From the NCBI GenBank assembly GCA_963675515.1, contig OY776328.1, positions 1,500,001-1,532,000 on the forward strand: 32,000 nucleotides of DNA, written 5' to 3'. Under the pieces are notes generated by a model. The model was not told where the DNA came from. It made no database searches and saw only the letters and a list, made by a program, of their open reading frames with translations. The DNA is from Coprobacillaceae bacterium. Lineage in GTDB: Bacteria; Bacillota_I; Bacilli_A; Erysipelotrichales; Coprobacillaceae. Positions 3,540 through 29,684 of this stretch are shown piece after piece. Position numbers and translations under genes: made by a program. The first letter of the stretch is position 1; the number at the start of each line of letters is the position of its first letter.

Positions 3540-4460
3540 ATGCAAGTAATTTTATTTGTCGGTCACGGTGATTTGCCCAAGGCGATGGTTTCGTCGGTCC
3601 AAATGATCATTGGCCCCAACCCCGATCTGTTCAACGTATGTCTATCCCCGGATGATGGCAAGGATGAATTTGCCGCCAAGCTAAAAGGGCTGGAAGACAA
3701 ACTGGAAAGCTATGAAAAGGTGATCGTGTTCTCGGATTTATTGGGCGGGTCTCCCAACAATGTAAGTTTCGAACAGTATTATCAAGATGACCGCTTCGAA
3801 ATCATTTCCGGAATGAGCCTGGCAATGGCCTTGACCGCCGCACTGTCAAGCAGCGATCCGATAACCATCATTAAAGAAGGGCGTCAGGGAATAATCAATG
3901 TCAAAGATCCCCAAGCAAATATTCAGGAGCAAAAAGACCCGTCAGCAGCCATGGCGAAAGTCAAACAGGGCCGGCCTTACAACATCAAGAATGTCCGGGT
4001 CGATTCAAGGGGCATTCACGGGCAGGTGGCGACCGCCTGGGTTCCGTATCTTGAAGTCGACAGGATTATCGTCATCGATGACAATGCCATCAAGGATGAG
4101 ACCCAAAAGATTGCCCTGAAGATGGCAAAACCCAACCACGTCAAGCTGTCAATCCTTTCGACATCTAAAGCGATTGAGCGTCTTGACAACAGCGATTCTT
4201 ACCTTGACGAGGACATCCTGGTTATCATCCAGCAGGTGAAGACCCTGCAAAGTTTGCATGACAAAGGCTATCGATTTAACGAAGTCAATCTGGGCAATAT
4301 CCCCAACCGTCCGGAAACAAAGGCTTACGGCAAGACTATCAACCTTAATGACGAAGAGGTTGCGACAATCAGAAATCTGATCCAGGCAGGGACCAGCTTC
4401 ACTGCCCAAATGGTTCCAAGCAATCAAAAAACTGATTTCAACGAAATCATCAAAGAATAG
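3540..4460 (+). CDS. PTS mannose/fructose/sorbose/GalNAc-family fused EIIA-EIIB component.
   Basis: N-terminal EIIA-Man motif (ILFVGHGDLPKAM), then a linker, then EIIB-Man/sorbose (VRVDSRGIHGQVATAWV). Confidence 0.9.
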   Translation: MQVILFVGHGDLPKAMVSSVQMIIGPNPDLFNVCLSPDDGKDEFAAKLKGLEDKLESYEKVIVFSDLLGGSPNNVSFEQYYQDDRFEIISGMSLAMALTAALSSSDPITIIKEGRQGIINVKDPQANIQEQKDPSAAMAKVKQGRPYNIKNVRVDSRGIHGQVATAWVPYLEVDRIIVIDDNAIKDETQKIALKMAKPNHVKLSILSTSKAIERLDNSDSYLDEDILVIIQQVKTLQSLHDKGYRFNEVNLGNIPNRPETKAYGKTINLNDEEVATIRNLIQAGTSFTAQMVPSNQKTDFNEIIKE

Positions 4461-4471
4461 AGGAGAGAACA

Positions 4472-5000
4472 ATGGAAATTTGGCAAGCATTATTAATCGG
4501 TTTATTTGCATACCTGGGCCGCAATCAGGTCCCATGGCTATTTGGAACAACCGGAGGCTGGTATGGCATCGGCCGTCCCTTGGTGGCCGGTCTGATCTGT
4601 GGCGTGATACTCGGTGATGTGACAACCGGGGTATTATGCGGGATTGCGGTACAGGCCATCTTTATCGGTCAGATCACTCCTGGTGGAGCGGTTCCTTCGG
4701 ACTTGAACCTGGCGGCGTATATCGGAATCCCATTGGCAATCGTAGCCGGTGGCAATCCGGAAACAGCGGTCGCTTTTGCGGTCCCATTGGGGGCATTGGG
4801 GGTGGCGTTGCATAACTTCACGATGACAACCCAGGCGACATTTGCCCACCGGGCCGATCACTGCGCTGACCGTGGTGATGCCATTGATTGTGGCACTTGG
4901 AAGTTACTTCCTGGTTGACAAGAAAAACTGGAGCACAAATAAACTGCTGCTAGGAATACTCGTATTTGCCGGGGCAATGGTTGCCTTAGGGATAATGTAA
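4472..5000 (+). pseudogene. Deletion-fusion pseudogene: PTS Man-family EIIC (first ~137 codons) joined out of frame to the last ~45 codons of EIID.
   Basis: The EIIC-like N-terminus runs up to ...TFAHRADHCADRGDA (compare ManY ...QHAADKAADNGN). The frame then ends at 4918. Frame 0 from ~4860 reads ALTVVMPLIVALGSYFLVDKKNWSTNKLLLGILVFAGAMVALGIM*, which looks like an EIID C-terminus. There is no intact EIIC C-terminal half and no EIID body. Confidence 0.7.
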
Positions 5001-5039
5001 TAGCACATATAACCAAATAACAAAGGGTGAGCCAAAATA

Positions 5040-5451
5040 GAGGTTCATCCTTTTCGCGGTGTCAAATCAACCGTGACCAGATCAAAGACATGCGGGTTAT
5101 GATGGGTATGGATTGTTATATTTTTTCCTCATACTCATGATACATTTCGGATAATCTAAATGGATGATAGATGGTATTGAAACATTTTTACGTCTATTGA
5201 CACATTCTCGCTATAATCCGCTAATAGATTTTCCAGTCTTGAGCAATTCTATGTGGATATACTCAAAATCAGGCATAACCAACAAGTAGGGATTCTTTTC
5301 AACAATTAATGGAAGGCTTTGATTTGGGTAATGTCAATGTTTTGAATATGAATCCAGGTCAACCCGGTTTTGTCAGCTGCTTTGCAAACCATGATGACGG
5401 TATTTCTTGATACATGCAGCGATGAAGCAGTGAATCGTAGACTTTTTACAT
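5040..5451 (-). pseudogene. Decayed N-terminal remnant of an IS21-family IstA transposase.
   Basis: The minus strand reads ...SLRFTASSLHVSRNTVIMVCKAADKTGLTW...ITQIKAFH*. In a shifted frame it continues (L)IVEKNPYLLVMPDFEYIHIELLKTGKSISGL*RE.., matching the IS21 IstA pattern (HTH ..SRNTV.., LFPEK.., PD.EYIH.EL.K.GVTL.LLW.EY). There are several frameshifts and stops. An SD (AAGGAGG, 5461-5467 complement) plus ATG at 5451 is followed at once by a frame break. The catalytic domain and istB are absent. Confidence 0.55.
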
Positions 5452-5621
5452 AAAAAAACACCTCCTTAGTAGTTACAATGCAGAACGACGTCTGCGCTTG
5501 AATTTTACTACCGAGGGGGTGATTCAGTGTGTGCAACTGTTGAATTATACACATGGCCCTAAGAGCTGGTCACATTGGTTCTAACCTTCAGACATAGTGG
5601 CCCCTAACTTTGGAATACTCA

Positions 5622-7091
5622 TTAGTTGCTAAGATCTTGTTGGATTACCGCAACCCTATTTTCTAAATATTGGATTATATCAATATTTCCGTCTACATAG
5701 TCGCTGTTATCCAGGCGTTCAACAAACGAAGAAATGGAAGATGCGATGCTGCTTTCATTAATTTTGAAAAATATTGCCTTTGAGTTTTCCCGGTTGTATA
5801 TTACACTGACATCGTTATCGCTAGATATGGAGATAATTAAATTCTTATTCAATTTCAGCTTTTTATCATCAATAATTTTTCCTTCGAATTTTTTATCCTG
5901 GAAATATTTGAGAAGATTTTTCAAAACCACAACCCTATCATTTTCACTGAGCGGCAAATATACGTCACTGTCAATCTCGTCAAAAGTACCTTCGTTGATG
6001 AACCTTTCAAGCCCCGATAGCGTGAATAATATCCTTGGAACATGGCCCTCGTCAATATATTTACGGTAACGCAATATCCGGTCGTTCATAATATTGATTA
6101 TCGCTTCCCGGTTTTCTATTTCCGATACCAGGTATTTCCTGATTATTGAATCAGTCAGAAACCATACCAGGCAAGGTTGGTCCATAAGATCGTAAGTGAC
6201 AAATTTGTTGTTCTTTTCCTTCTCATAATAGTATAAAATGAAGTCAAATGTATCCCGGAAACGGTTAATTAGTGGCTTAGTTGTCGCTTCCATTTTTTTG
6301 AAAAAATTATTGTGAACCTCAACTGCCTCGGGCTGGCTGTAGATCATGGCAACATCACCTTTATTAGATAATGTTATTGCATACTTTCCGACAATTATTA
6401 AATTTGGAAATTCAGTCATTTCACTGAATTTTGATGCTATGTCATCATAATATATAAGAAAGGTATAAGATTCACGATTAAGCAAAAACGGTACTATGTT
6501 ATGAATGCTATTTAGGTTATATGTGTTTGTCGAATTCGAACCAATGTTTTTTTCGAAACAAAGTATGTGATTCACTTTTACATTGGGATTGATTTTTTGG
6601 ATGTTGTAGAATAAATTCATAAATAATCTATTTTCAGTTTGCATTATCAGGTTGAGCTCGTTTACTTCGTTGCCTAATGCATCCTCGATAATTGATCGTA
6701 CTGTCCAAAAGACATTGTCTTTCCCTCTTATTGTGCAAAGCCCATCAATACCGTCGATTTCAAAGGAAGTTTTGATTTTAATTTGATTATTTGAATCTTC
6801 AATAGATTCAGTGAATCCTTCGATTAATTTTGTAACAGATTTATCGCGCAAATAAATGTTTTTGCCGTGCTTTGACATTTCATAAGACACCATTAGGTTT
6901 GACTTTTCTGACTCAGTCAGCATCATGGCATCAAGGATCCTTGTGGCTATTTTCCTATTGGCCGGTTTCCTGTCACCTTTGATTATTTTGTGCAATAAAG
7001 TACGTTCGATTCCACTGTCTCGGGACAATTTAGCGATATTAATATCGATGTCCTCGAGTTGTTCCCTTAAACTCCTCGCAAATTCATTCAT
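5622..7091 (-). CDS. XRE-type HTH protein (489 aa) with a ~420-aa C-terminal domain of unknown function. Putative transcriptional regulator.
   Basis: N-terminus is INIAKLSRDSGIERTLLHKIIKGDRKP (HTH_3-like). SD AGAGGGGA lies upstream of the ATG. The gene is very AT-rich. I do not recognise the C-terminal domain, and it is not obviously TPR. Confidence 0.8.
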   Translation of the reverse strand: MNEFARSLREQLEDIDINIAKLSRDSGIERTLLHKIIKGDRKPANRKIATRILDAMMLTESEKSNLMVSYEMSKHGKNIYLRDKSVTKLIEGFTESIEDSNNQIKIKTSFEIDGIDGLCTIRGKDNVFWTVRSIIEDALGNEVNELNLIMQTENRLFMNLFYNIQKINPNVKVNHILCFEKNIGSNSTNTYNLNSIHNIVPFLLNRESYTFLIYYDDIASKFSEMTEFPNLIIVGKYAITLSNKGDVAMIYSQPEAVEVHNNFFKKMEATTKPLINRFRDTFDFILYYYEKEKNNKFVTYDLMDQPCLVWFLTDSIIRKYLVSEIENREAIINIMNDRILRYRKYIDEGHVPRILFTLSGLERFINEGTFDEIDSDVYLPLSENDRVVVLKNLLKYFQDKKFEGKIIDDKKLKLNKNLIISISSDNDVSVIYNRENSKAIFFKINESSIASSISSFVERLDNSDYVDGNIDIIQYLENRVAVIQQDLSN

Positions 7092-7327
7092 GATAATTTC
7101 CCCTCTTTCTCATGGTAATACTCAATAATGTTGCATGCTCATAAGTGAAATCAGTAAAAATTGAATCGATCAACAATATTGGTTGAACAACTCAATATCC
7201 GGTTAAAATGATTTCCCCTCGAAATTTGATCTAAAACCGGTGGTGCTTAGTGTGATGACTTTAAAATATAATAAAATTGCCGGACATTAAGAATTTGTCA
7301 ACGGTTCGAAAATGCGCTGTTTAATTC

Positions 7328-7394
7328 TATCACTGCTGTGTCACTTTAGTAGTCACTCATGCAAGTGGATAGTAGCAACAAACAGTGATATCAT
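7328..7394 (+). promoter_or_regulatory. Three phased GTCAC-type boxes followed 27 nt later by TGATATCAT (set A). Possible third member of the box-promoter family.
   Basis: TATCACTG (7328), TGTCACTT (7339) and AGTCACTC (7351) have start-to-start spacings of 11 and 12 nt. TGATATCAT sits at 7386-7394. No convincing ORF lies downstream before 7868. Confidence 0.3.
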
Positions 7395-7789
7395 TTATCC
7401 AGGCATCATCACTAAATAAAAGATAAAAATCAATTCTACGAAAACCCTATGATAAACACTTAATGCCCGCCAGAAAGTATTACATTACAAATATCTACCA
7501 CGCATGAGTAAAGTCACAGCAAAAGCAATTAATTACACTTATTAACATAACAATATTATACTTCAGTGAGTGAATAATGGCAATTAAAGCCAGGGTACTT
7601 GCTTATTAAATTTCTCAATATTGAATTTCAGCTATCCACTACTCATTAAAAGCTTTGCATTTTATTCTAGACCTCCCTTGGGGGTTAAAACGGGAAGGAT
7701 CGTTTATTCGTATGCAATCATAATTTTTGCCTCATATTCATCATGTCGAATTTAAGAAAGCAGCCGTTCACAAAGTCACTTTCGTTTTC

Positions 7790-7841
7790 CTGTCACACAA
7801 ACAGTCACGCAGTTGACTGACAGTAAAAGCCAATGATAGAA
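7790..7841 (+). promoter_or_regulatory. Box-promoter of the amidase gene (set B): three 8-bp boxes plus an extended -10.
   Basis: TGTCACAC-aaac-AGTCACGC-agt-TGACTGAC-(12 nt)-TGATAGAAT. A -35-like TTGACT (7812-7817) overlaps box 3, with an 18-nt spacer to TAGAAT. The ATG lies 26 nt after the -10. Confidence 0.55.
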
Positions 7842-7867
7842 TGAAAAATGAGTAGGGGGAAAGACAA

Positions 7868-8911
7868 ATGGTGAGTTTAAAAAGGTGCATGGTTGTTCTG
7901 CTTATGTTTGGATTGGTTGCGGGGTTGACCGGTTGCAATATTACTGCAAATAAGGCTGAGACATCTGGTTCGCTAGTTGAAGAAAGGGACGTTTCTACAA
8001 ATGAACTTAGTGATAGTCAAAATACTGAGCAGGAAGTTGAAATATCAGATTCCAATCTGGAAACTGGCCAGTCCGACAATGAAACGGTCGTTATGTACGC
8101 CTCATGCAAAGTCAATATCAGAAATAAGCCTTCTTTCACTGGAGAAATATTGGCAGTTTTGGATAAAAGTGTTGAGGTGGAAGCTGTGATGCATGACGAT
8201 GGTTGGAGCGAAGTTGTCTATAATGGGGATATTGGCTATATCGCAAGCCGGTATCTAACCGATGATAAGGAATTGGGAAACGGATATGTGGTAGTGATTG
8301 ATGCCGGCCACCAGTTGGTTGGCAATTCTGAAAGGGAGCCGATTGGTCCTGGTGCCAGTGAAACCAAGGCTAAAGTAACTGGTGGCACAAGGGGGTGTGT
8401 AAGCGGCCTTGCGGAGTACGAACTAAACCTCCAGGTATCCTTGAAGTTACAGGCGGAATTGGATGACCGCGGATATACTGTTTCCATGATTCGAACTACC
8501 AATGATGTTAACATCAGCAACTCACAAAGGGCGATCATGGCCAATGAGGCTGGCGCTGATGCTTTTTTGAGAATCCACGCGAATGGCTCAACTGATTCTA
8601 ATGACAATGGGGCAATGACGATATGTCAGACACCATCAAACGTTTACAATGGCAATTTGTATGCACAAAGCAAGGCCCTCTCAACCGAAATCCTCGATTC
8701 GCTTGTTGGGGCGACCGGATGCAAAAAGGAATATGTCTGGGAAACAGACACGATGAGTGGAGTGAACTGGGCTCAGGTCCCGGTGTCGATTATCGAGATG
8801 GGCCACATGACAAATCCGGCTGAAGACCGGAATATGGCTAGTGAAGCATACCAATACAAAATAGTCGAGGGTATTGCCAATGGTTTGGATAATTATTTTG
8901 GACTCAACTGA
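7868..8911 (+). CDS. N-acetylmuramoyl-L-alanine amidase (Amidase_3 family) lipoprotein with an SH3b domain.
   Basis: Lipobox LVAGLTGC. SH3b-like segment (VNIRNKPSFTGEILAVLDKSVEVE...GWSEVVYNGDIGYIASRYL). Amidase_3 motifs VVIDAGHQ, LRIHANG and IIEMGHMTNPAED. Confidence 0.9.
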   Translation: MVSLKRCMVVLLMFGLVAGLTGCNITANKAETSGSLVEERDVSTNELSDSQNTEQEVEISDSNLETGQSDNETVVMYASCKVNIRNKPSFTGEILAVLDKSVEVEAVMHDDGWSEVVYNGDIGYIASRYLTDDKELGNGYVVVIDAGHQLVGNSEREPIGPGASETKAKVTGGTRGCVSGLAEYELNLQVSLKLQAELDDRGYTVSMIRTTNDVNISNSQRAIMANEAGADAFLRIHANGSTDSNDNGAMTICQTPSNVYNGNLYAQSKALSTEILDSLVGATGCKKEYVWETDTMSGVNWAQVPVSIIEMGHMTNPAEDRNMASEAYQYKIVEGIANGLDNYFGLN

Positions 8912-9149
8912 ATCGTTGATATGAACGGTTCTCTCCATTCTTTCCGTATAATTGAATGAGCTAGGAGAATATACATTTTGGCTGGATAATGGTTTGTCTA
9001 TGATGGTTTTGGGTTAAAATCCAAAATGTCTGGGGCAAACTTTTTTTGTTTTGGTGATATAAGCTTACCCTGTATGTTAGGATAGTTGTCAGTGAAGGAT
9101 AAATATATTTGTGGTAGTATATAGATACCGCAAAGAAGGAGCTGATACT

Positions 9150-9644
9150 ATGAAATATAGCAAGGAATTTAAAGACTCAATCATTCGGAGAATGCTTCCG
9201 CCTAATAATGAATCGATCAGTAAGATTTTAAAGGAAGAAGGAATCTCGGAACAAACAATTCGAAACTGGAGAAATAAGGCCAGAGCCGAGGGACTTGCTG
9301 TCCCGGGTAACGATTCCGGCTCTGAACAATGGCGTACTCAGGATAAATTCTTGATTGTTGTTGAAACTGCAAGCATGAATGAAACGGAGCTTGCTGACTA
9401 CGCGCGTAAGAAAGGCCTTTATGTTGAACAAATCTTGGCTTGGAAAGACGCCTGTATGAATGCCAATGGAGGCATCGCTCAGGAAGCGGCGCGCTTGAAT
9501 AGACAATTGAAAGATTCCGAGAAGGAAAACAAGCGTTTGGAAAAAGAATTGCCGAGAAAGGAAAAGGCACTTGCTGAAACTGCCGCTCTTCTTGTATTAA
9601 GAAAAAAGGCAGATGCGATTTGGGGGGATCCCGAGGAAGAATGA
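9150..9644 (+). CDS. IS3-family transposase OrfA (HTH / leucine-zipper part).
   Basis: MKYSKEFKDSIIRRML...ISEQTIRNWRNKA, then a coiled-coil (LKDSEKENKRLEKEL). SD AAGGAG precedes ATG 9150. The slippery heptamer A_AAA_AAG at 9602-9608 is in the orfA frame. Confidence 0.85.
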   Translation: MKYSKEFKDSIIRRMLPPNNESISKILKEEGISEQTIRNWRNKARAEGLAVPGNDSGSEQWRTQDKFLIVVETASMNETELADYARKKGLYVEQILAWKDACMNANGGIAQEAARLNRQLKDSEKENKRLEKELPRKEKALAETAALLVLRKKADAIWGDPEEE

Positions 9645-10687
9645 TTAGTTCCTCAGATCGCAGTAGAGCCATTGAACTAATCGATGCCGCAGTTAAATGT
9701 GGCGCAAAACTCTTTGAAGCATGTAAGGAAATCGGAATTACGGAGCGGACTTATTATCGTTGGATTAAGCAATTAAGCACCATGGGCACGATCGAAGATT
9801 TAAGGCCAATTGTCAAACGCCCTGAACCTGCAAATAAACTCACAAAACAGGAACGGGAGAAGATTATTGAAACGGTAAATCAGCCCGAGTATGCCAGTAT
9901 GCCTTTGTGTGAAATAGTTCCTGCCCTTGCAGACAATGGGGAGTATATCGCCTCAGAATCAACGTTTTATAGGCTTCTAAGAGAAATGAAAATGCAGAAC
10001 CATAGAGGAAGATCAGCAGAGCCCAAAAAGCGCCAAATGTCCACGCATGTCGCAAGTGCTCCCAATCAAATTTGGATGTGGGATATTACTTATTTGAACG
10101 GCCCCATTAAGGGAACTTTCTACTATCTATACATGATATCAGACTTATATAGCCGGGACATTGTGGGTTGGGAAGTATGGGAAGAGGAATCCGCTGAACA
10201 TGCCAGTGAACTAATAAATCGAACCGCTTTGGCTCAGCGCGTACTATCAACTGACCCTCTTGTCTTGCATTCTGATAACGGCAGCCCCATGAAAGGCGCA
10301 ACAATGCTTGCGACACTATATCAGCTTGGGATTACACCATCAAACAGCCGTCCAAGAGTAAGCAATGACAATCCATTTGCGGAGAGTCTTTTCAAGACGC
10401 TCAAATACAGGCCAAATTACCAGCCTAAGGGATTTGGCAGTCTCTCTGAGGCTCGCTCATGGTGCGCTGATTTTGTCAGTTGGTATCGTCATGAACATCA
10501 TCATAGCGGCATCAAATTTCTTACACCCGCACAACGTCATAGTGGTGAAGGTGATAAGATTATGGAGAAACGTCGCGAGGTTTATGAAGTTGCAAGAGCA
10601 GCTCACCCGGAAAGATGGAATGGCCGAAATACAAGAGATTGGTCCTTACCGACTGAAGTATTCTTAAATCCCGAGCGGAAGCTATAG
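9620..10687 (+). CDS. IS3-family transposase OrfB (DDE/rve integrase core), expressed as an OrfAB fusion by -1 frameshifting.
   Basis: Lies in the -1 frame relative to orfA. Has the rve motifs WMWDITYL, HSDNGSPMKG and NDNPFAESLFKTLKY. Confidence 0.85.
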   Translation: MGGSRGRMISSSDRSRAIELIDAAVKCGAKLFEACKEIGITERTYYRWIKQLSTMGTIEDLRPIVKRPEPANKLTKQEREKIIETVNQPEYASMPLCEIVPALADNGEYIASESTFYRLLREMKMQNHRGRSAEPKKRQMSTHVASAPNQIWMWDITYLNGPIKGTFYYLYMISDLYSRDIVGWEVWEEESAEHASELINRTALAQRVLSTDPLVLHSDNGSPMKGATMLATLYQLGITPSNSRPRVSNDNPFAESLFKTLKYRPNYQPKGFGSLSEARSWCADFVSWYRHEHHHSGIKFLTPAQRHSGEGDKIMEKRREVYEVARAAHPERWNGRNTRDWSLPTEVFLNPERKL

Positions 10688-10885
10688 AATGCGTTATTGA
10701 CAGCAAGTAAATCATGTTGTACTAAATAGAAAAAATAGAAAAATTACTGACAACATACTTGACAATTACCGCTTATAAGGGATATCTTGTTTGATCATTT
10801 TGGCATAAATTCAAGTTCGGTTCTCTATTATTCGGCGAATTCCTGATAATTATGGTCCATGGCCGCCTAGGGGGCAACAATAATG

Positions 10886-10937
10886 TGTCACACATATTGT
10901 CACACGGTTGTCACATTATCAACAATAATGATACAAT
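10886..10937 (+). promoter_or_regulatory. Box-promoter of the zinc-ribbon cluster (set C): three 8-bp boxes plus an extended -10.
   Basis: TGTCACAC-atat-TGTCACAC-ggt-TGTCACAT-(12 nt)-TGATACAAT. The spacing is identical to set B. A -35-like TTGTCA (10908-10913) overlaps box 3. The module is bracketed by a perfect 11-nt direct repeat CAACAATAATG (10875-10885 and 10920-10930). Confidence 0.55.
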
Positions 10938-11009: not shown

Positions 11010-11534
11010 ATGTATTGTGCAAATTGCGGTAGTAAATTGGTAGAAGGTGCAAATTTTTGTACCACGTGTGGGACAAAAACAAATAGTGATTCGATCGGGA
11101 GTGCGAGAGAAACAAACAGGACTACAAATAGTCAAAATGGGGGCAAATCCATCTCGAACAATTATTATCCGAAAGCTGCATCACAAGTGGGAGATCAAAT
11201 TTATGATGAATTTGACGGAGCAAATGTTCTTCTGGATACGCCCAAAGAAAAAACAAATATATCGAGTAATAGTCCATCCGCTTCTTCTGGTTTAATGGCA
11301 TTCTCCGGCTTTGTTATCGCGTTATTGATTATTGGTGGTGGTGCATCGATAGCATATGGTTATTATTTGAATTCGACGGTGGATGTTGATAAAGCATATG
11401 ATGATTTTTGGTACAATGGTTCATTGAATTTGCATCCGGGAAATGAATATCTGTCAAATGGTGAAATTGCACTGATCATTGCTGTGGTAATAGCAATCAT
11501 ATTTTATCTAAGTGGAAAGACTCAACGAAAATAA
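11010..11534 (+). CDS. Zinc-ribbon membrane protein (174 aa): N-terminal CxxC-x10-CxxC knuckle, linker, two C-terminal TM helices.
   Basis: MYCANCGSKLVEGANFCTTCGTK. TM helices FSGFVIALLIIGGGASIAYGYY and IALIIAVVIAIIFYL. SD GGGGAGG lies upstream. Confidence 0.8.
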   Translation: MYCANCGSKLVEGANFCTTCGTKTNSDSIGSARETNRTTNSQNGGKSISNNYYPKAASQVGDQIYDEFDGANVLLDTPKEKTNISSNSPSASSGLMAFSGFVIALLIIGGGASIAYGYYLNSTVDVDKAYDDFWYNGSLNLHPGNEYLSNGEIALIIAVVIAIIFYLSGKTQRK

Positions 11535-11586
11535 GAAGTTATATGACTATCTAAAGATCAAACATGAAGGGATGTGAAAATTAGAT

Positions 11587-12117
11587 ATGAGAGAAAAGTT
11601 ATTGAAGTTTGCCAGCTATCTGCTTCCAGCAGTGATAGTGGTCTTGTTGATCATGACATTGAGCATGGTGATTGGTGACAAGATTTTAGGTGTTCAAGCT
11701 ACCAAGGTCGACTCCACTCAGGTTGTAAGCGAGACGGAAACAGGAGATGTATACTTTGAAATTGACGCGATCGGTCTAGAAGTGTCTGGTGCCACTTTTT
11801 TGCAAGCTCAAGATTACACTAATTCAACAAATGGCAGCGACGAATACATTCTTCCCGGCAGTGCAACTAGTCTTTTGGATGAAAATGACCTGACCGGAAT
11901 GACGGCAAAAGAGTTATGTTATGCTCGAAATGAACTGTTTGCTAGACATGGGTATATATTCAAGTCCCAAGAGCTTAACGATTATTTCAACAGCAAAAGT
12001 TGGTATGCACCTGATTTAAATTATTCCTTTGATTCATTGAGTGATATCGAAAAGAATAATGTAGATCTTATCGTCAATTATCAAAACAACAACAATCTCA
12101 ATTATACTGTAAGCTGA
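11587..12117 (+). CDS. Membrane-anchored YARHG-domain protein (176 aa).
   Basis: N-terminal TM (YLLPAVIVVLLIMTLSMVIG). C-terminal ELCYARNELFARHGYIFKSQELNDYFNSKSWY is the YARHG motif. Confidence 0.85.
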   Translation: MREKLLKFASYLLPAVIVVLLIMTLSMVIGDKILGVQATKVDSTQVVSETETGDVYFEIDAIGLEVSGATFLQAQDYTNSTNGSDEYILPGSATSLLDENDLTGMTAKELCYARNELFARHGYIFKSQELNDYFNSKSWYAPDLNYSFDSLSDIEKNNVDLIVNYQNNNNLNYTVS

Positions 12118-12141
12118 TTTTGAGCTAAGGAGGAAGTTATT

Positions 12142-13647
12142 ATGTATTGTCATAATTGTGGCGAAGAAATCGGTGATAACGATATATTCTGCGGCAGTTG
12201 CGGAACAAAAACGCAACGACCTGAAGGTGGTTCATCTATAGCCCGTAGACCTGATAACCAAGGCAAACCCGAAGTTGAACGTTGTGATTCCATTAAAAAC
12301 GTGACCGGTGAAAAGGTTTCCGATGTTGAAGGAGTGATGAAAAATGATTTTAAGGGCAAGGTCGATACTCCAACGCAAGGGGATCGAATACAAGAAACTG
12401 CTGTATGTGAGGAGGGGGATTCTTATAAAGACAAACCGCACATTGCAGGGAATGCGAATATTGATATTATTGAAAGCAATCCAAACGGGATTGCAGAAGA
12501 TGTTAGAATAGGTAAGGCGAAATCCAGGGGAGTCGACAAAGTCAATGCTCCAACGTGGAAAAACAGCAAAACCTACAGGCTTGTGGTTATAGAATCAATT
12601 GTATTGACCGTGGCAATCTTTGTATTCATGTATGTAGGAAAAAACGCGTACAATTATGCTAACGTAGGGAAGGAATATGTCGATGCCATAAATACTGGTA
12701 ATTATGGTAGAGCATATGACCTGATGGATTTGAATGGTGTTTCAGAATCTGATTTTATCAACAAGGAGGCTTATATTCTTGTTAATCAACAAAAAGAAGT
12801 CCTTGATAATTACCAATCTGAGGTTGTGTCTAGTTCTAAAGACTCAGATAGTGCCTTGGTTACAGTAATTGTCAACAATCAGGATAACTATACCGTCAGC
12901 CTGGTAAAAGGAGCGGGAAAGGAATTTTTGGTATTCGATTCTTGGAAAGTTCCTTACAGCAGTATTTGTTCAAATTATGAAATTAATGTTTGTGAAGGAT
13001 CAGTCGTAGAATTGGACGGTGTTAAATTAGACGAAAGTTATCTGGTTCATTCGGGCAATAGCGATGGGGAATGGGATAGCTACAATATTCCTTATCTGTT
13101 TATAGGCAATCACAATGTTAAAGTTTCATTTGGAGATTTTGAGGGTGATAATGAAGCGTTATTCGTTTCAGGGGATAATCAAACATATTATCATGACGTT
13201 CTGGAATTGAGTGAAGAGAGTCAAGGTGAACTTGTGATTAGATGTGCGGATGACTTCAAGATTTTGATGGAAGCCCTGGTCACCGGAAAACCTTTTACTG
13301 AAATCGCAGAAAAATTGACATCGTCCCAATACAATGAAAAAAATGTGTATGATTCGCTGCAGTACAAATATCTCTCAGATGGGGCGTCCAATGGTGTGAT
13401 AAGTGTCGACTACTCCGATATTAAAGGTACATTATATGATTCCTGGATCCAAGAAAGTGGACCAATTGTGGAAGTAAAATTGCAGATGCAATATAAATAC
13501 AATTATATTAATAACAGTGTTGAAAAAACAAGTTCAGGCGGGGATTCGGTTTTCTTTACATATTGCTATGATGAGGATGCAAAAAATTGGAATATCTGTG
13601 ACTTTGATTGGCCGGAACCGTTTGATACAAGCGGATATTACTATTGA
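12142..13647 (+). CDS. Zinc-ribbon / single-pass TM protein with a ~335-aa extracytoplasmic domain of unknown function (501 aa).
   Basis: MYCHNCGEEIGDNDIFCGSCGTK has the same Cys spacing as the 11010 gene. Charged linker, TM (LVVIESIVLTVAIFVFMYV), then a large C-terminal domain. SD AAGGAGGAA lies upstream. Confidence 0.8.
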   Translation: MYCHNCGEEIGDNDIFCGSCGTKTQRPEGGSSIARRPDNQGKPEVERCDSIKNVTGEKVSDVEGVMKNDFKGKVDTPTQGDRIQETAVCEEGDSYKDKPHIAGNANIDIIESNPNGIAEDVRIGKAKSRGVDKVNAPTWKNSKTYRLVVIESIVLTVAIFVFMYVGKNAYNYANVGKEYVDAINTGNYGRAYDLMDLNGVSESDFINKEAYILVNQQKEVLDNYQSEVVSSSKDSDSALVTVIVNNQDNYTVSLVKGAGKEFLVFDSWKVPYSSICSNYEINVCEGSVVELDGVKLDESYLVHSGNSDGEWDSYNIPYLFIGNHNVKVSFGDFEGDNEALFVSGDNQTYYHDVLELSEESQGELVIRCADDFKILMEALVTGKPFTEIAEKLTSSQYNEKNVYDSLQYKYLSDGASNGVISVDYSDIKGTLYDSWIQESGPIVEVKLQMQYKYNYINNSVEKTSSGGDSVFFTYCYDEDAKNWNICDFDWPEPFDTSGYYY

Positions 13648-13663
13648 AAGAGAGGGAAAATAA

Positions 13664-14473
13664 ATGGCAAATTTTTGTACAAGATGCGGGCGACCACTAA
13701 GTCCCGGAGAAGAATGCGGCTGCCAAGCTAAAAATGAAGAGAAAATTGTTACTGAACAAAGCGGATCTGGATTTACACGAGGAATAGCGGCACAAGCTAA
13801 TGTTGACGCAAACGATTTTCAGCAGGCTGAATGGATGAGGCTTTTGGGTGATGCTGTCAATAGGTTGAAAATTCTGGCGAAAAAGCCGGTATCGGAAGGT
13901 AAAATCTTTGTTTCCGAGAATAATTTCCAAATGGCTTTTGCATTTGTGATATTTCAAGCGTTGTCGGTGGCCTTGTTCGTTGTTGTTCTCGAATCGAAAG
14001 TCTCGCAATTGGCATCCAATCTGATGAATGGATTTGGTGATTTGGGGGTACTGTTGGGTTATGCAATACCATCAATGAGTTTTTCGTATGTATCTAACTT
14101 TTTTATGGCAATCCTGTTGTCAACTCTACTTAGTGGAGCACTTGCAGGACTCCTCTATTTGGTGAGTGGCTTTTTCAAAAATGCCATAAGTTTCAAGCAG
14201 GCATTTTGTATCACATCAATGCGGAGCGTGGTTACTGTTCCTGTGGCCATTATTGCTACAGTTGTGAATTTTGTCAGTCCACTCATGGGAATTGTGGCAT
14301 TGTTGATGGCAAATATCTGGGCTTATTGTGTTCTTGTCCAGTTGATTCCTTCGAAAAGAGTGGGATTTGACGATCTAAAACCACTAATGGTATTTCTGGT
14401 TGCCCTAGGCTTTTTGATTGTAAGTGTATTTGCGATTTATCAATCGTACGAAATGTTCGTGCCGAGTTTTTAA
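13664..14473 (+). CDS. Zinc-ribbon protein fused to a polytopic (about 5 TM, Yip1-like topology) membrane domain (269 aa).
   Basis: MANFCTRCGRPLSPGEECGC, followed by multiple hydrophobic helices. It starts 16 nt after the previous gene. Confidence 0.75.
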   Translation: MANFCTRCGRPLSPGEECGCQAKNEEKIVTEQSGSGFTRGIAAQANVDANDFQQAEWMRLLGDAVNRLKILAKKPVSEGKIFVSENNFQMAFAFVIFQALSVALFVVVLESKVSQLASNLMNGFGDLGVLLGYAIPSMSFSYVSNFFMAILLSTLLSGALAGLLYLVSGFFKNAISFKQAFCITSMRSVVTVPVAIIATVVNFVSPLMGIVALLMANIWAYCVLVQLIPSKRVGFDDLKPLMVFLVALGFLIVSVFAIYQSYEMFVPSF

Positions 14474-14537
14474 CACCGAATTTTTGGCGGATATTGAAAA
14501 TATATTGATCATTTTGTAGTTGCCTGGGGGGATATCA

Positions 14538-16061
14538 ATGTCAAAGGGATTGAAATTGTCACATGTATTAGTAGGTTTACTGGCGGTGATAGCATGGTAT
14601 TTTGTGATATCGCCGTTTATTGATGATATGTCAAATGGTGACTCTGCGAGTCAATCAGTTTCCAAAGGGGAGAATGATGAAGTAAGTGAAGAGATTAAAG
14701 CGAAAATCGAAAGCATTGAATATTCATTTGTATTGTCCAGTCTCAGGAGTCAGGGAGCAGAAGATATAGGCTATAAGGTCACCGATGGTGACGGTGATTG
14801 TTACGACGAACTTTTTTTGGAAGCAATCACTGATGGCGACTATCCGATGCATACTCAGTTTATCGCCGATGCTGACGGCTCAAATTCGCAATTTTGGGGA
14901 TACGCTCCAACCGGCGCCGCTGAGAGTTCGAATTTTTGTACTATGGATGGATATGACACAGTTCTATGGAATGACGATTTTTCAACTATCGGATATTCGG
15001 AATCTCACTACAAATGTTGGATTGGCACCGGATGGGAAGAAATCACAGAACTCGATGGTGTTGCCTTCGATTATGATAATAAGGTTGATTTCGACAATCC
15101 GGATTTGTTGAATATCGAAATCCAAGGGGAGCCAATGAGTATCTTTGCCGCCACAAAATCTTACTTTAAGGGAAGAGAAGGGGCAATTGATGTTGGTTCA
15201 GCCGATCTGGATAATGATGGAATGATTGAATGTGTCTACTGTGTCAAAGGCGCGGGAAACAGATGGTTTGACAAATTGGAGATGGAAAACACAACCGAAA
15301 ATCAGTGCACTGATGGATATCATGATGACAATCTCACTGTTGTAATTGTTGATGAAACAATTGATGGTGTCGTGCTCAGACCGGTTTTGATCTCTTATTC
15401 AGGTTTGAACATAAAAATAATTGAAAATACATTATCCATAAATGATGTTTGTTTCAATTATTTTGACACTGATAATACAAACGATAGGCCAAGTCTTACA
15501 TCTACATCGTCAATTTTCGGTTCAAATAGCAAGTTTAACAGTCTTGGTGAAAGAACAATCCTGGGCATGATCGGGGCGTCTTATTCCGATGTTCGCAATT
15601 TGTGTACGAATATCAATTTTTCCTATTCGGATCCTGAATCTGCCACCGCTGAAATTAATGGATCTCAATGCCGGTTTTACTTCAATAACTATTCAAATCG
15701 AAATGCGATAACCTCAGATTCGATAGTGCGCGATATTGAGGTAAACAGTTGGGGGTTTGTAAATGGAGAAATGGCGATAGATCCCACTCCGGTAATTGGA
15801 GATTTTTCTATGGGTGATGCCATTAGTGAATTGAGAAAGCTCATGGTATCATCCGGTGAATGGAGTCCGTTATTATATGGGCAAGACATTATAGCTAGCA
15901 CTAGTTTCTATTATCGACCATCGGATGAAAATGGCCACGTATACCAAGTGATTGTGATGGCCGATGGAGAAACTTTGGATTCCAGGGTATGCGGAATCCG
16001 GCTCGAGCAAATGGATGTTGCAGATCTTGAAGCTAAATCTAAAAAAGCGCTAGGATATTAG
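14538..16061 (+). CDS. Membrane-anchored extracytoplasmic protein of unknown function (507 aa), D/N/Y/S-rich.
   Basis: ATG 14538 sits behind GGGGGG. N-terminal TM (LSHVLVGLLAVIAWYFVISPF). Contains a DLDNDG calcium-binding-like/FG-GAP-like motif. I recognise no family. Confidence 0.7.
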   Translation: MSKGLKLSHVLVGLLAVIAWYFVISPFIDDMSNGDSASQSVSKGENDEVSEEIKAKIESIEYSFVLSSLRSQGAEDIGYKVTDGDGDCYDELFLEAITDGDYPMHTQFIADADGSNSQFWGYAPTGAAESSNFCTMDGYDTVLWNDDFSTIGYSESHYKCWIGTGWEEITELDGVAFDYDNKVDFDNPDLLNIEIQGEPMSIFAATKSYFKGREGAIDVGSADLDNDGMIECVYCVKGAGNRWFDKLEMENTTENQCTDGYHDDNLTVVIVDETIDGVVLRPVLISYSGLNIKIIENTLSINDVCFNYFDTDNTNDRPSLTSTSSIFGSNSKFNSLGERTILGMIGASYSDVRNLCTNINFSYSDPESATAEINGSQCRFYFNNYSNRNAITSDSIVRDIEVNSWGFVNGEMAIDPTPVIGDFSMGDAISELRKLMVSSGEWSPLLYGQDIIASTSFYYRPSDENGHVYQVIVMADGETLDSRVCGIRLEQMDVADLEAKSKKALGY

Positions 16062-16233
16062 CTAATCATCTATAACGCTAATTAGGTGATTGCCGCAAGT
16101 CGTCTAGAGATGGATATTTTTCCATAAAACAAGTAGTGTCCTGTTACGATGTGGTCCATTGGCAGCTATCGAGATGTATATTAGGTTATATAATTAACTG
16201 AAAAATAAATAAATGGCGATTGGAGGTGTAACT

Positions 16234-18855
16234 GTGAAGAAAATCAAAAGAATAGTTAAGTTTTTATTTGTCTTATCGTTGCTTTCTGCATTGTTTGTTG
16301 GTGTGAATGCATTACACAACCAAGACGATTATGACTATAACGCCGAGTATTTGTCTGTGTTAGAAGAAAACTCGGATTGCTACTACCTTCAAAGAACCTC
16401 GCGTAATATAAAATTCAGCGTTGCTGTGTCGGATTCTTTGACAGTTCCAGATTATTCCGTGGTTGATTCAAATGGTGATATGGTTTCGACGGGTTTGGAT
16501 AAGGTGACTGACAGTAATTATGATATATGTTCTCCTACAGGAGGGTATATCGTAGGTGAACAATATACTTTGACACTTAGTGAAGGATTATCCCTCACTG
16601 ATGAAAATCTACAAAGAGCCCGAACTCTAATATTCTCTATAGAACGTAGTGCTGTTGCAAAATATGATTTTACTGACAGAGTTATAGAAACTACCGAACC
16701 TATTAAAGAATTTACAGACGATATTATTTCATTTAATGGAGCTACTGCAAAACCTGGAGAAATTGTTTTTGGTGCTAATGATAACGGTGAGTATGTAGCC
16801 TACAAGATATCGGAAATAAGGGATGATGGAACGGCATCAGTAACTGTGCCGGCAATTGACGAAATATATTCAGAACTTGATGTTTATGGTGATTATGACT
16901 TTGATGTCGATGACTTAATTGCCAATGAAAATCTTGAAATCGAAATAGCTGAAAATACAAAAAATAGCAATTTCTATTCTGCATTGATAATGGAAGCTTA
17001 TGCTCTTGGGAAAACAGACAAAGGGGCGGTTGATGTATCTATTACGCGAGATTCAAATACCAATTCACTTGATACTAAAATAAAAATAACATTGAAACCT
17101 GGTCAAGATGGTTTGTTTGGTATGTGCGAGCTTAAGGATCATGAGGTATCAATTACGTATAATAGCTCCCTCAATTTAAAGGTCCAATCAGATATACGAG
17201 GGGTAAGCAAATGGGATGTCGCAGCATCTGTTAAATCTGGATCATCTTTGAATGTAAAGATAACTCGTATTTTGAGAGAAGCTAAAACCGAAGCGGAAAT
17301 TGATGATTTGTTTTCTCCATCTGGTGAGATTCCAAATGTAACTGATTATCAACAGTATGTCAAAAATATTACAAATAAACTTAATAAAATTGCTGAAGAT
17401 GCCAGTGGGGGGGAGTTAAAAATATTTGACTGGAAAATGCCAATTCCTTCTGTTCCTGGTCTATATTATTCAGCTGAAGTAAAATTGTTCATTGATTTAG
17501 AGATGACTGCAAGTATCGACGTTGGAGCAGATTGTATGACATTTTACCGGGTTGGAGTATGTTTTGCAAATAATGAATTCAATACTTATTCAAATTTATA
17601 TAGTGATGGTGTAAAGCTTTCTCTATCTGTACGTGGTGAAGCGGAGAGCAAGACTGGTATTAAGCTCGAAGTTGGAGCAACCCTTATAAATGATAAAGTG
17701 GCTAACATTAGAATTGATCCAGAAGCTGGTGTCTATATGGATATGTATGCAACGGTTCCCATCTATGGAGAACTTGACAATATTTCAAAAAGATGTTTAT
17801 ATGGGTATTTTGAGCCAGGTATCTATTTAGGGGCAGATTTAAATGCTCGATTGAACATTGTCCTTAAAACGGTTAATTATAGTTATGGATTAGCCGAAAA
17901 GAAACTTCCATTTGATAATTGTATCATTGGAGAGAATGAAATTGCTTTGGATATAGAATCAACTGAAGGAAGTATTGCAGCGGTAAATAACGTTGCCAAA
18001 TTGCCAAATATTCTATTTGAATATTATGACGTTAAAGATAACTGCATAAATAATACAAATCTTTCTAATGATGATTTGGAATATACATTGAATGATGGAA
18101 CGGCTCTTGAAGTGTATGATGGGAACGTTGTATTGCCTTCAGGTACTCCATCCGGAAGCAATTATGTTACTGCGAAATATCATCATAGTAATGGAGGCGA
18201 ATATGATACAACTTTTGAGGTTGTTGTTTACGACGGTATAGTGATAAATGATGAGTTAAACAGATTCTTTAGTAATTTTTGTGACCCGTGGCCTACAATA
18301 GATGAATTTAGCGCTGCGAATATTGATATGGACCAATTAATTGAATTTTCTATATTTTACAATTTATTTAACAACAGTGATCAATGTGAGGAGATACAAA
18401 ATTACTATGGTGGCTATTATAGTATTTCAGAAGAATATGTTGAGCAATCCATCAGACGCTTCTTTGATTTAAACAGTGAAGAACATATCAAATTTGTGGA
18501 TTCAATATACGCGTATTCTACAGTAGATAGTGGCATTGGATATGAAAACGGGTATTTTAATTTCCTATGGCCAGATAATGAGATCTTTAATTTTGCGCAT
18601 GTAACTAAACTTTATGATAACGGTGATGGCACTTACACCGTGCTATTTGATGTTTATGGTGCGTATGGATATGACCTTGCAACGGGTAAGACAATTGATT
18701 ACTCAAAAATCAATGTGTACGCTAATAAAAGCGAATGGGATTATAAAATCGGTGATTCAAACTATTTTTGCGATTGTCATTATGAGGCGGATGTAAAACC
18801 TTACTATTATAATGGAATAGAAACATATCAGGTTATAAGCATGAAAAAAAAGTAA
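16234..18855 (+). CDS. Large secreted or anchored protein of unknown function (~873 aa).
   Basis: The likely start is GTG 16234, 7 nt after GGAGG (the ORF-track ATG 16213 has no SD). Signal-peptide-like N-terminus (KKIKRIVKFLFVLSLLSALFVGVNA). The remainder is beta-rich and D/N/Y-rich. Confidence 0.75.
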   Translation: MKKIKRIVKFLFVLSLLSALFVGVNALHNQDDYDYNAEYLSVLEENSDCYYLQRTSRNIKFSVAVSDSLTVPDYSVVDSNGDMVSTGLDKVTDSNYDICSPTGGYIVGEQYTLTLSEGLSLTDENLQRARTLIFSIERSAVAKYDFTDRVIETTEPIKEFTDDIISFNGATAKPGEIVFGANDNGEYVAYKISEIRDDGTASVTVPAIDEIYSELDVYGDYDFDVDDLIANENLEIEIAENTKNSNFYSALIMEAYALGKTDKGAVDVSITRDSNTNSLDTKIKITLKPGQDGLFGMCELKDHEVSITYNSSLNLKVQSDIRGVSKWDVAASVKSGSSLNVKITRILREAKTEAEIDDLFSPSGEIPNVTDYQQYVKNITNKLNKIAEDASGGELKIFDWKMPIPSVPGLYYSAEVKLFIDLEMTASIDVGADCMTFYRVGVCFANNEFNTYSNLYSDGVKLSLSVRGEAESKTGIKLEVGATLINDKVANIRIDPEAGVYMDMYATVPIYGELDNISKRCLYGYFEPGIYLGADLNARLNIVLKTVNYSYGLAEKKLPFDNCIIGENEIALDIESTEGSIAAVNNVAKLPNILFEYYDVKDNCINNTNLSNDDLEYTLNDGTALEVYDGNVVLPSGTPSGSNYVTAKYHHSNGGEYDTTFEVVVYDGIVINDELNRFFSNFCDPWPTIDEFSAANIDMDQLIEFSIFYNLFNNSDQCEEIQNYYGGYYSISEEYVEQSIRRFFDLNSEEHIKFVDSIYAYSTVDSGIGYENGYFNFLWPDNEIFNFAHVTKLYDNGDGTYTVLFDVYGAYGYDLATGKTIDYSKINVYANKSEWDYKIGDSNYFCDCHYEADVKPYYYNGIETYQVISMKKK

Positions 18856-19063: not shown

Positions 19064-19574
19064 TCGCTAATGTAGTTTAGATGCTACCTGACATCCCTGG
19101 AAAGTTTTTATGTCGAAGTATTTGAATGGCGACTAGACTGTTTATTTGGTTTGGGAATCCTGACATGGGCAGACCATGGGGAGGATTAGACAAATAATTA
19201 ACATCTAACACGTGATGGACAATCATATAGTTAAACTGGCGCAAATATTGGTGATGTTGTTTACCAAGACAAAGAAAAAATGCCGCAAGGTTTTATTTTC
19301 CTGGTGGATAAGCGGAAGCCCCGAGTAAACATATTTATCTAAATGGCAATGTCACGTAAGTTATTTCCGATCCATTTGGATTTGCAGTATTATGCAAAAC
19401 AATTCATGAGACTATTTCATAAAGTAAAAACAAAATTTCATAAATTAAAAATATTCGCTTTTAAGATTTGATTTTGTGGTAGGGTAATTAAGAGCCATTT
19501 CCTAATAGTTAGGAAAAACTGTTAGCGGCCTGTTTTATTATTTTGATGTTATATTGTAATAGGAGTTGATGAAT

Positions 19575-24167: not shown

Positions 24168-24692
24168 ATGAAAATTGTAATGATATATGACCAGATTCAA
24201 GCCGGAGCCGGCACCAAAGATGACAAGATGGTAGGCCTGAAGGCAACCAGGGATGTGATCGGACCGGCGGTGATGATGGAACCTTATTTAAAGCAGATAG
24301 ACGGCCAGGTAATTGCCTGCCTTTACTGCGGCGATGGGTACTTTCGGGCAAATGAGGCTCTGGTCGTTTCCAAATTCACTGCCATGATTGCCAAATTGCA
24401 GCCCGACCTGGTTATCTGTGGCCCCTCTTATAACTATTCAGGCTACAGCGAAATGGCGGTGAAAACGGCCGCTGCGATAAAAAGAGATCTCGATGTCCCG
24501 GTAATCTGTGCCATGGCAAAGGACAACAGCGAATTGATCGGTGTCTACAAGAGCAAGGTTCCAATTGTCAAAACCCCTAAAAAAGGCGGGGTTGGATTGA
24601 TGGAATCATTGCAAGGGATATCGCTTGTGGCAGATGCGCTGGTCAATCATCAGGATTCAAATGAGGTCTGCTCAAAATATTGTTTCAACTAA
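24168..24692 (+). CDS. Stand-alone protein resembling the N-terminal domain of GrdB/PrdB (glycine/sarcosine/betaine/D-proline reductase B family). It has no selenocysteine region.
   Basis: The pattern MKIVMIYDQIQAGAGTKDD...VIGPAVMM...CGDGYF..N...PDLVICGPSYNYSGYSEMAVKTAAAI...VPVI parallels my recollection of the GrdB N-terminus (VHYINQFF..IGGE...VGPGMAL...CGD.FF.EN...PDL..AGPAFNAGRYG.ACG.VA). Confidence 0.7.
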   Translation: MKIVMIYDQIQAGAGTKDDKMVGLKATRDVIGPAVMMEPYLKQIDGQVIACLYCGDGYFRANEALVVSKFTAMIAKLQPDLVICGPSYNYSGYSEMAVKTAAAIKRDLDVPVICAMAKDNSELIGVYKSKVPIVKTPKKGGVGLMESLQGISLVADALVNHQDSNEVCSKYCFN

Positions 24693-29612: not shown

Positions 29613-29652
29613 TGAATGTATGCTTTTTGCATATGTTTGTTTGGGCTTTTTT
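29603..29652 (+). terminator. Conditional rho-independent terminator controlled by RAT/LicT.
   Basis: AAAGCCTAAATGAATGTATGC-TTTTT-GCATATGTTTGTTTGGGCTTT forms a 21-bp stem in which all 5 non-Watson-Crick positions are G-U pairs, followed by TTTTTT. Confidence 0.8.
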
Positions 29653-29684
29653 ATATTGAAAAAGTCCGCGGGAGGGAAGATTTA

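Follow-up and report, generated by a model that had tools for sequence, protein, structure and literature searches.

Comparison with described regulatory systems

Among response regulators of the OmpR/PhoB family, WalR recognizes TGTWAH-N5-TGTWAH and the Pho box reads CTGTCAT-N4-CTGTCAT, with a period of 11 bp. RRNPP regulators combine an XRE-type helix-turn-helix (HTH) domain with a large C-terminal sensor; their genes lie beside the target genes, often divergently, and the operator is found immediately upstream of the -35 hexamer. SinR, which is also of the XRE type, controls matrix and polysaccharide operons and can use direct repeats of a 7-bp site. The subject of this study is a group of tandem TGTCACA boxes in a 32,000-nt stretch of the genome of a Coprobacillaceae bacterium (contig OY776328.1), called the window below, whose own positions serve as coordinates throughout. 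Three sets of boxes, A, B and C, were identified, which are probably the operators of a divergently encoded protein of 489 aa. This candidate one-component regulator (5622..7091, minus strand) has its XRE/Cro-C1 HTH at residues ~3-62, followed by a C-terminal tandem region that is phospholipase D (PLD)-like.

Like the boxes of the window, Pho and WalR boxes are tandem direct repeats with a core of 6-7 bp, placed about one turn apart and set against the -35 hexamer or in its place, and the TGTCAC of the window resembles the Pho-box core CTGTCAT. However, tandem repeats at the -35 hexamer are common to many activator classes and do not discriminate for the OmpR/PhoB family. The boxes of the window differ in having a period of 12, in departing from TGTWAH, and in lying beside an XRE-type gene with no response regulator nearby. 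Because both consensus sequences fail and no response regulator is present, the system is not to be filed under the Pho or WalR boxes; it would belong with one-component regulators that have an operator of their own.

The RRNPP regulators Rgg, ComR and PlcR share with the 489-aa protein the fusion of an HTH to a sensor, the gene layout and the operator position. Unlike them, the window's regulator has an alpha/beta, PLD-like C-terminus without TPR matches in Foldseek, its operator is a direct repeat instead of a palindrome, and no peptide gene was found adjacent to the regulator gene. SinR of Bacillus subtilis, with its eps operon, is similar in its XRE-type HTH, its polysaccharide operons and its use of direct repeats, whereas it is a repressor of 111 aa that is controlled by an antagonist, recognizes GTTCTYT and has no PLD-like domain. 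The archaeal sugar-sensing regulators TrmB and TrmBL2 are also one-component proteins in which a DNA-binding domain is joined to a PLD-fold effector domain, and their structures were retrieved by Foldseek (5bpd, 5bpi and 2f5t, with E-values of 1e-5 to 1e-4). In contrast to TrmB, the window's regulator has an XRE/Cro HTH in place of the winged helix, its family is found in bacterial Clostridia, and there is no match at the sequence level. The TrmB-family Pfam domains PF01978 and PF11495 (Regulator_TrmB) gave no match, and the likeness is one of C-terminal fold only.

Tandem boxes in the window

The pattern GTCAC-N7-GTCAC was observed three times in the window, at 7340 (set A), 7792 (set B) and 10887 (set C), compared with 0.02 occurrences expected. 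All three copies are intergenic, lie on the same strand and fall inside a low-GC island. Sets B and C had been reported in the initial annotation to follow a common layout, and this description holds. Set C reads TGTCACAC-atat-TGTCACAC-ggt-TGTCACAT-12 nt-TGATACAAT (10886-10937, plus strand) and set B reads TGTCACAC-aaac-AGTCACGC-agt-TGACTGAC-12 nt-TGATAGAAT (7791-7842, plus strand); the layout of set B is real, but its start had been placed at 7790, one base too far to the left. A strict form of the module, TGTCAC-N7-GTCAC-N4-TTG-N18-TGNTANNNT, has two matches in the window, namely sets B and C, and none in shuffled sequences. The same pattern has no match in a 596 Gb collection of species-representative genomes, and its 20 matches in a metagenome collection are single and mostly chance-like in appearance. 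Identity between sets B and C is 35/52, with 19 of these positions forced by the pattern, and one unrelated metagenome match resembles set C as much as set B does.

The predicted operator of set C is TGTCACA-N5-TGTCACA (10886..10904, plus strand), the closest of the sets to the family consensus given below, and that of set B is TGTCACA-N5-AGTCACG (7791..7809, plus strand). A consensus promoter scan placed the core promoters directly behind them, with TTGACT-18 nt-TAGAAT for set B (7813..7842, plus strand) and TTGTCA-18 nt-TACAAT for set C (10908..10937, plus strand). Both have the TG extension, so the extended -10 that had been proposed is present, and the third box coincides with the -35 hexamer in both sets, as had also been described. 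In set C this third box is a TGTCACAT at 10909-10916 that overlaps the hexamer; in set B it is the -35 hexamer plus 3 nt, and is identical to box 1 at 5/8 positions. The perfect 11-nt direct repeat CAACAATAATG that had been seen around the boxes of set C (10875-10885 and 10920-10930, plus strand) is exact; with about 0.8 repeats of this kind expected in 32 kb, however, it is at chance level. The third box and the flanking repeat are probably incidental. In set B, box 2 and the -35 hexamer together form the inverted repeat CAGTCA-N6-TGACTG (7802-7819), which the scan rates as terminator-like on the minus strand; the resemblance of the box to the hexamer probably accounts for it.

Set A, TGTCACT-N5-AGTCACT (7339..7357, core 7340-7356, plus strand), is a third copy, absent from the sites listed here in the initial annotation. 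The HTH gene and the amidase gene are separated by 777 nt of intergenic sequence, and set A lies in this region at 248 nt from the regulator gene, on its upstream side. It is directed away from that gene, in the same position and orientation as the boxes of homologue loci, and takes the ancestral divergent position. The plus-strand promoter of set A has TGCAAG as its -35 and no -10 at 17 nt, and looks decayed. Facing the regulator gene is an extended -10-like element, TGATAGAAT (7324..7332, minus strand; promoter scan, inverted repeat I3). The boxes of set A cover the -35 and spacer region of this element, which makes autoregulation plausible, and the element is a possible autoregulated promoter of the regulator gene.

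The 777-nt region contains six plus-strand GTCAC and no minus-strand copy. Two of them are single boxes, at 7513 (aaaGTCACag) and at 7775 (aaaGTCACtt), the latter 17 nt upstream of box 1 of set B. Between sets A and B, about 400 nt (7395-7790) hold no convincing open reading frame (ORF) and no Rfam match; this segment may be the decayed rest of a divergent gene that was once the regulator's target, or it may give rise to an unannotated transcript. The Rfam search of the whole window likewise gave no match. A different spaced repeat, TGATG-N7-TGATG, counted together with its complement, has four occurrences in the window, as many as poly-A, and probably reflects the codon periodicity of coding sequence. 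Two related, low-GC metagenome contigs (L009 and L020) carry a run of TGTCAC at a 6-nt period (TGTCACTGTCACTGTCAC) upstream of TTG-N18-TGATATTAT, an arrangement unlike the 12-nt boxes of the window. Two further readings of the boxes were tried and rejected. A sigma-54 promoter of the -24/-12 type would need a GG/GC dinucleotide pair, which is missing, and ordinary -35 and -10 hexamers follow the boxes; transposon ends or iterons are at odds with copies that are all in direct orientation and at promoters.

Boxes beside relatives of the regulator

The adjacent HTH protein had been named in the initial annotation as one candidate binder. It is the best lead and probably the right one, as the same boxes are found beside its relatives. 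A first sample comprised 21 loci with 199 kb of sequence, made up of contigs of closer members and of 17 genome loci that were found with a 4-sequence alignment of the family. The genome loci hold relatives that are 22-29% identical and come from Anaerocolumna, Caproicibacter, Caproiciproducens, Ruminococcus and Oscillospiraceae. In these 199 kb, 16 perfect GTCAC-N6/7-GTCAC pairs were found, compared with 0.21 in shuffles, and 15/16 lie at most 400 nt from the regulator gene, despite widely differing neighbour genes. Boxes with one mismatch are present at two further family loci. The prediction was also applied prospectively to a locus fetched later (protein P0135, locus L045), where a perfect pair lies 71 nt upstream of the regulator gene, in divergent orientation. 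When near-duplicates were collapsed, boxes were present no more than 400 nt from the regulator gene in 15/18 non-redundant loci, with relatives 22-32% identical and from several Clostridial genera.

The sites of the family have a common build: the two boxes, tGTCACA-N5-tGTCACA, are followed after 3-4 nt by a -35 hexamer of the form TTGCnn or TTTACA, and the -10 hexamer comes after another 17 nt. Read as GTCAC, all of them are directed away from the regulator gene. The period from box start to box start is 12 in sets A, B and C and in nearly all homologue sites, with 11 nt in one locus. From the second GTCAC to the -10 the gap is 26 nt in 13 of the 14 sites that were used for a weight matrix (L025 has no recognisable -10), 26 nt in L040, 27 nt in L045 and 28 nt in sets B and C. 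The weight matrix was built from the 14 homologue sites only, without the sites of the window. When applied to the window, it scored set C at 21.6, the top match, set B at 19.3 and set A at 16.0, followed by a next score of 11.3; by rank, set A is the fourth match and the third distinct site. Random 32-kb sequences give 0.047 matches of at least 16. The motif is conserved beside the regulator gene across orthologues and paralogues, and the N-terminal domain of the protein is an HTH of the Cro/C1 type. Since the same boxes lie beside distant relatives of the regulator in many other Clostridia, the regulator is the most likely protein to bind them.

The regulator family

The 489-aa protein itself falls below Pfam thresholds and has no Pfam or NCBIfam match. 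A word-indexed homology search saw no family for it or for the 501-aa protein of the six-gene cluster, leaving both orphan-like. An exhaustive HMMER search with the 489-aa protein identified 1026 family clusters (E<=1e-3), mostly of ~480 aa and aligned from end to end. A profile of 56 family members matches the HTH regions of C.BclI, C.AhdI, Stl and, weakly, SinR (residues 3-62), and 24-29 of the 56 members match Pfam HTH_31, HTH_3 or HTH_26. The recognition helix, (D/E)RT(L/F)(L/I)(H/Q)K, is near-identical in family members with identical operators.

The AlphaFold (AF2) model of the protein has a predicted local distance difference test score (pLDDT) of 93.6 and a predicted template modelling score (pTM) of 0.92. 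It contains five N-terminal helices, followed by a C-terminal part of alternating beta-strands and helices with two PLD-like repeats. Using Foldseek, the C-terminal ~400 residues were matched to the phospholipase D fold, as seen in PLD, the phosphatidylserine synthase PssA, the polyphosphate kinase PPK and the effector domain of TrmB/TrmBL2. The family alignment has a nearly invariant H175 and N192, which are 17 residues apart as in the HKD motif. The motif is degenerate, however, with only these two residues kept and the catalytic K and D absent, which suggests that the PLD-like domain is a sensor and not an enzyme. Its fold resembles the TrmB effector domain, and its role is probably sensory. 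Neither Pfam (2025) nor NCBIfam (2026) has a model for the C-terminal region, one family member is labelled "hypothetical protein" at NCBI, and a full-text search of a literature library returned nothing on the motif or on the combination of an XRE HTH with a PLD fold.

A sub-family of the regulator in loci L031-L037 is only 323-337 aa long and probably has a single PLD-like repeat; its recognition helix and its boxes are unchanged. In these loci the boxes are always upstream of a divergent gene for a CpaE/ParA-like ATPase with a receiver-like N-terminus.

Genes downstream of the boxes

In the window, set B precedes a gene for a lipoprotein N-acetylmuramoyl-L-alanine amidase (7868..8911, plus strand) with SH3_3 and Amidase_3 domains and a lipobox, LTGC, in the translation. 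Set C precedes six tightly spaced genes (11010..18855, plus strand) with gaps of 16-151 nt, which presumably form a single operon transcribed from set C. Their products are a zinc-ribbon membrane protein, a YARHG protein, the 501-aa zinc-ribbon protein, a zinc-ribbon/Yip1-like protein with multiple transmembrane (TM) segments, and two proteins of 513 aa and 880 aa with no known function. Co-regulation of the amidase and the cluster, as proposed in the initial annotation, is well supported by the shared, non-random promoter module, since both are preceded by tandem boxes at a spacing of about one helical turn that adjoin a -35 and are followed by an extended -10.

In other loci, what follows the boxes is a gene for a large secreted or surface protein (L024, L026 twice, L027, L028 and L029), a gene for a zinc-ribbon multi-TM protein (L025), or an operon with a CpaE/ParA-like ATPase (L031-L037), cpsB-wzz (L039), Bac_transf-MurJ-Wzz (L040) or TPR/DUF87 (L045). 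The cell envelope is the common theme of these genes, and the amidase and the zinc-ribbon/YARHG cluster of the window fit it. Homologous loci had been expected to keep the module. This expectation was borne out beside relatives of the regulator, at the 15/18 loci given above, but not at the loci of the closest amidase homologues (66-70% identical), where boxes are absent; the module therefore belongs to the regulator and not to the amidase.

An amidase paralogue of 432 aa (P0008), 70% identical, is encoded on the same source contig. The metagenome contig L044 has three adjacent, co-directional genes (3586-7050), with gaps of 25 and 38 nt and no TGTCACA boxes. Their products are a zinc-ribbon protein, a GH3 glycosidase and an amidase with 66% identity to that of the window. 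The arrangement points to a recurrent connection in function between this type of amidase and zinc-ribbon membrane proteins.

Proposed circuit and alternative explanations

In the proposed circuit, two HTH domains of the 489-aa protein would contact the tandem boxes from a single face of the DNA, with the centre near -47 to -49. The operator would consist of two TGTCACA boxes 12 nt apart, at ~-58 to -38, the second ending 3-4 nt before the -35 of a sigma-A-type promoter. Set B would drive the lipoprotein peptidoglycan amidase, set C would drive the six-gene zinc-ribbon/YARHG envelope cluster, and through set A the regulator would control its own promoter. A small molecule is presumably the signal for the PLD-like domain; a sugar-related ligand, by analogy with TrmB, is only a guess. 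If the protein binds as predicted, activation through contact with RNA polymerase, in a class-II-like manner, is somewhat favoured as its mode of action, since the distance between boxes and promoter is near-fixed across very divergent genomes (35-60% GC).

Taken together, the balance of the data tilts slightly towards a wider proposal. In this proposal, an undescribed Clostridial family of at least 1000 clusters (at 50% identity) would combine an XRE HTH with a non-catalytic, TrmB-effector-like PLD-fold sensor, and would recognize a near-invariant TGTCACA-N5-TGTCACA fixed 3-4 nt before the -35. In response to a small-molecule signal, its members would switch cell-surface loci, including those for exopolysaccharide, surface proteins and CpaE-like ATPases as well as the amidase and cluster of the window. 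The regulation of capsule, surface proteins and cell-wall remodelling in gut Clostridia (Lachnospiraceae, Oscillospiraceae and Ruminococcaceae) is almost unknown, and one cis-motif and one protein family appear to tie together many such surface loci. As the operator is short, near-invariant and rigidly placed, regulons can be predicted from sequence, and the protein-DNA pair is directly testable. If confirmed, the XRE HTH with a PLD-fold sensor would be a new sensor class among bacterial one-component systems, and would offer a promoter for anaerobes that are hard to manipulate genetically, one that is portable and may be ligand-controlled.

Several points weigh against this picture. The link between the 489-aa protein and the boxes that it is predicted to bind is one of guilt by association. 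At three family loci, including that of the closest relative, P0127 (36% identical), boxes are missing within 8-10 kb, and boxes that were predicted upstream of the cpsB gene on the P0127 contig are not there. Sets B and C share an offset of +2 (28 nt, compared with a family norm of 26-27 nt), which could mean that one promoter was copied from the other or that the geometry is specific to this regulator. Set A is not a family-type promoter, given the 32-nt gap to its nearest plus-strand -10. XRE-type HTH dimers usually bind inverted and not direct repeats; each box is itself a near-palindrome (TGTnACA), with the central C conserved in one orientation. Finally, near-consensus sequences at several target promoters (TTTACA-17-TAAAAT) fit a repressor better than an activator.

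This last point leads to the alternative that survives best, in which the same protein binds the same boxes as a repressor, and which is possible but has the smaller share of the probability. Bound at ~-58 to -38, and in set C also at a third box over the -35, the protein would block sigma region 4 or the alpha subunit until it is released by a ligand at the PLD-like domain. Strong promoters are already present at many targets (TTTACA-17-TAAAAT/TATAAT) and those of sets B and C have an extended -10, the third box of set C sits on the -35 hexamer, and set A lies over the -35 and spacer of the element that faces the regulator gene; many XRE-family proteins are repressors. However, homologue sites have only two boxes, which leave the -35 uncovered, and a near-fixed 26-28 nt to the -10, kept in many genera and from 35 to 60% GC, is more typical of activators that touch RNA polymerase.

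An OmpR/PhoB-family response regulator encoded elsewhere in the genome, of WalR, PhoP or PhoB type, is an improbable binder. Such proteins would occupy the boxes head to tail at about one-turn phasing, replacing or abutting the -35, and this was the assignment made in the initial annotation. It is consistent with direct repeats at 11-12 nt phasing that adjoin the -35 hexamer, with TGTCAC being one base away from the Escherichia coli Pho-box core CTGTCAT, and with a peptidoglycan hydrolase as a classic target of WalR. The homologue loci speak against the assignment: boxes and XRE-type gene occur together in 15/18 cases and several genera, whatever the target gene, and none of the examined genes beside the boxes was seen to encode a DNA-binding response regulator. 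TGTCAC also breaks the WalR TGTWAH at position 4, the period is 12 and not 11, and the amidase homologue loci lack boxes. The accompanying statement that the window encodes no response regulator is correct, as no protein with Response_reg or Trans_reg_C was found in it.

If anything less probable is another conserved factor or a promoter of a special kind (with an UP-like element or an alternative sigma factor, for example), with the XRE-type gene being merely a frequent neighbour. The indirect link between protein and DNA and the three family loci without boxes would agree with it. Against it, ordinary sigma-A hexamers at 17-18 nt spacing follow the boxes, an identical operator accompanies a near-identical recognition helix, and the perfect pairs in the 199 kb keep close to a family gene (15/16 at most 400 nt away) while their other neighbours are diverse. 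Chance resemblance or plain duplication of a promoter segment without regulatory meaning, for which the modest likeness of sets B and C outside the motif, the metagenome match that equals set B in similarity to set C, and the chance-level 11-nt repeat could be cited, is effectively refuted by the enrichment in the window (3 pairs, 0.02 expected), by the family loci, and by a weight matrix from other genomes that picks exactly these sites.

Genomic setting of the locus

The regulator, amidase and cluster lie in a stretch of lower GC content, at ~5-19.5 kb, with 33-45% GC compared with 43-50% in the flanks. This stretch abuts a truncated gene for a sorbose-type EIIC of the phosphotransferase system (PTS) (4472-5000), of which 148 aa remain, ending at 135/233 profile positions. 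The low GC content and the truncated neighbour suggest that the stretch with regulator, amidase, insertion sequence and cluster was acquired, and the ~14.5-kb stretch looks like an island that was inserted into or beside a PTS operon. The proteins of the island are all singletons at 90% identity. PADLOC gave no match on the window, and PHROGs gave only generic endolysin/amidase-domain matches for the amidase and one family of unknown function for two zinc-ribbon proteins; these results do not mark the island as phage or defence.

Between the amidase gene and the cluster lies an insertion sequence of the IS3 family (9085..10754, plus strand). It has overlapping orfA (9111-9644) and orfB (9620-10687), a 9-nt terminal inverted repeat, GTTGTCAGT, and a 3-bp ATA target duplication. 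Its proteins contain HTH_Tnp_1 and rve (DDE) domains, and the NCBIfam model transpos_IS3 was matched with 196 bits, above the cut-off of 160. The exact ends are tentative because the inverted repeat is short. The insertion is confirmed: as had been suggested, the element separates two once-adjacent units, which were formerly ~300 nt apart. A plasmid search with the element gave no match.

The flanks of the island contain several PTS operons together with a Mga/PRD/EIIA-type regulator (19566-21482) and a BglG-type CAT-PRD antiterminator (29616-30548), both unrelated to the boxes. A GRDB-like ORF is also present (24168-24692), and its stop is TAA instead of an in-frame TGA.

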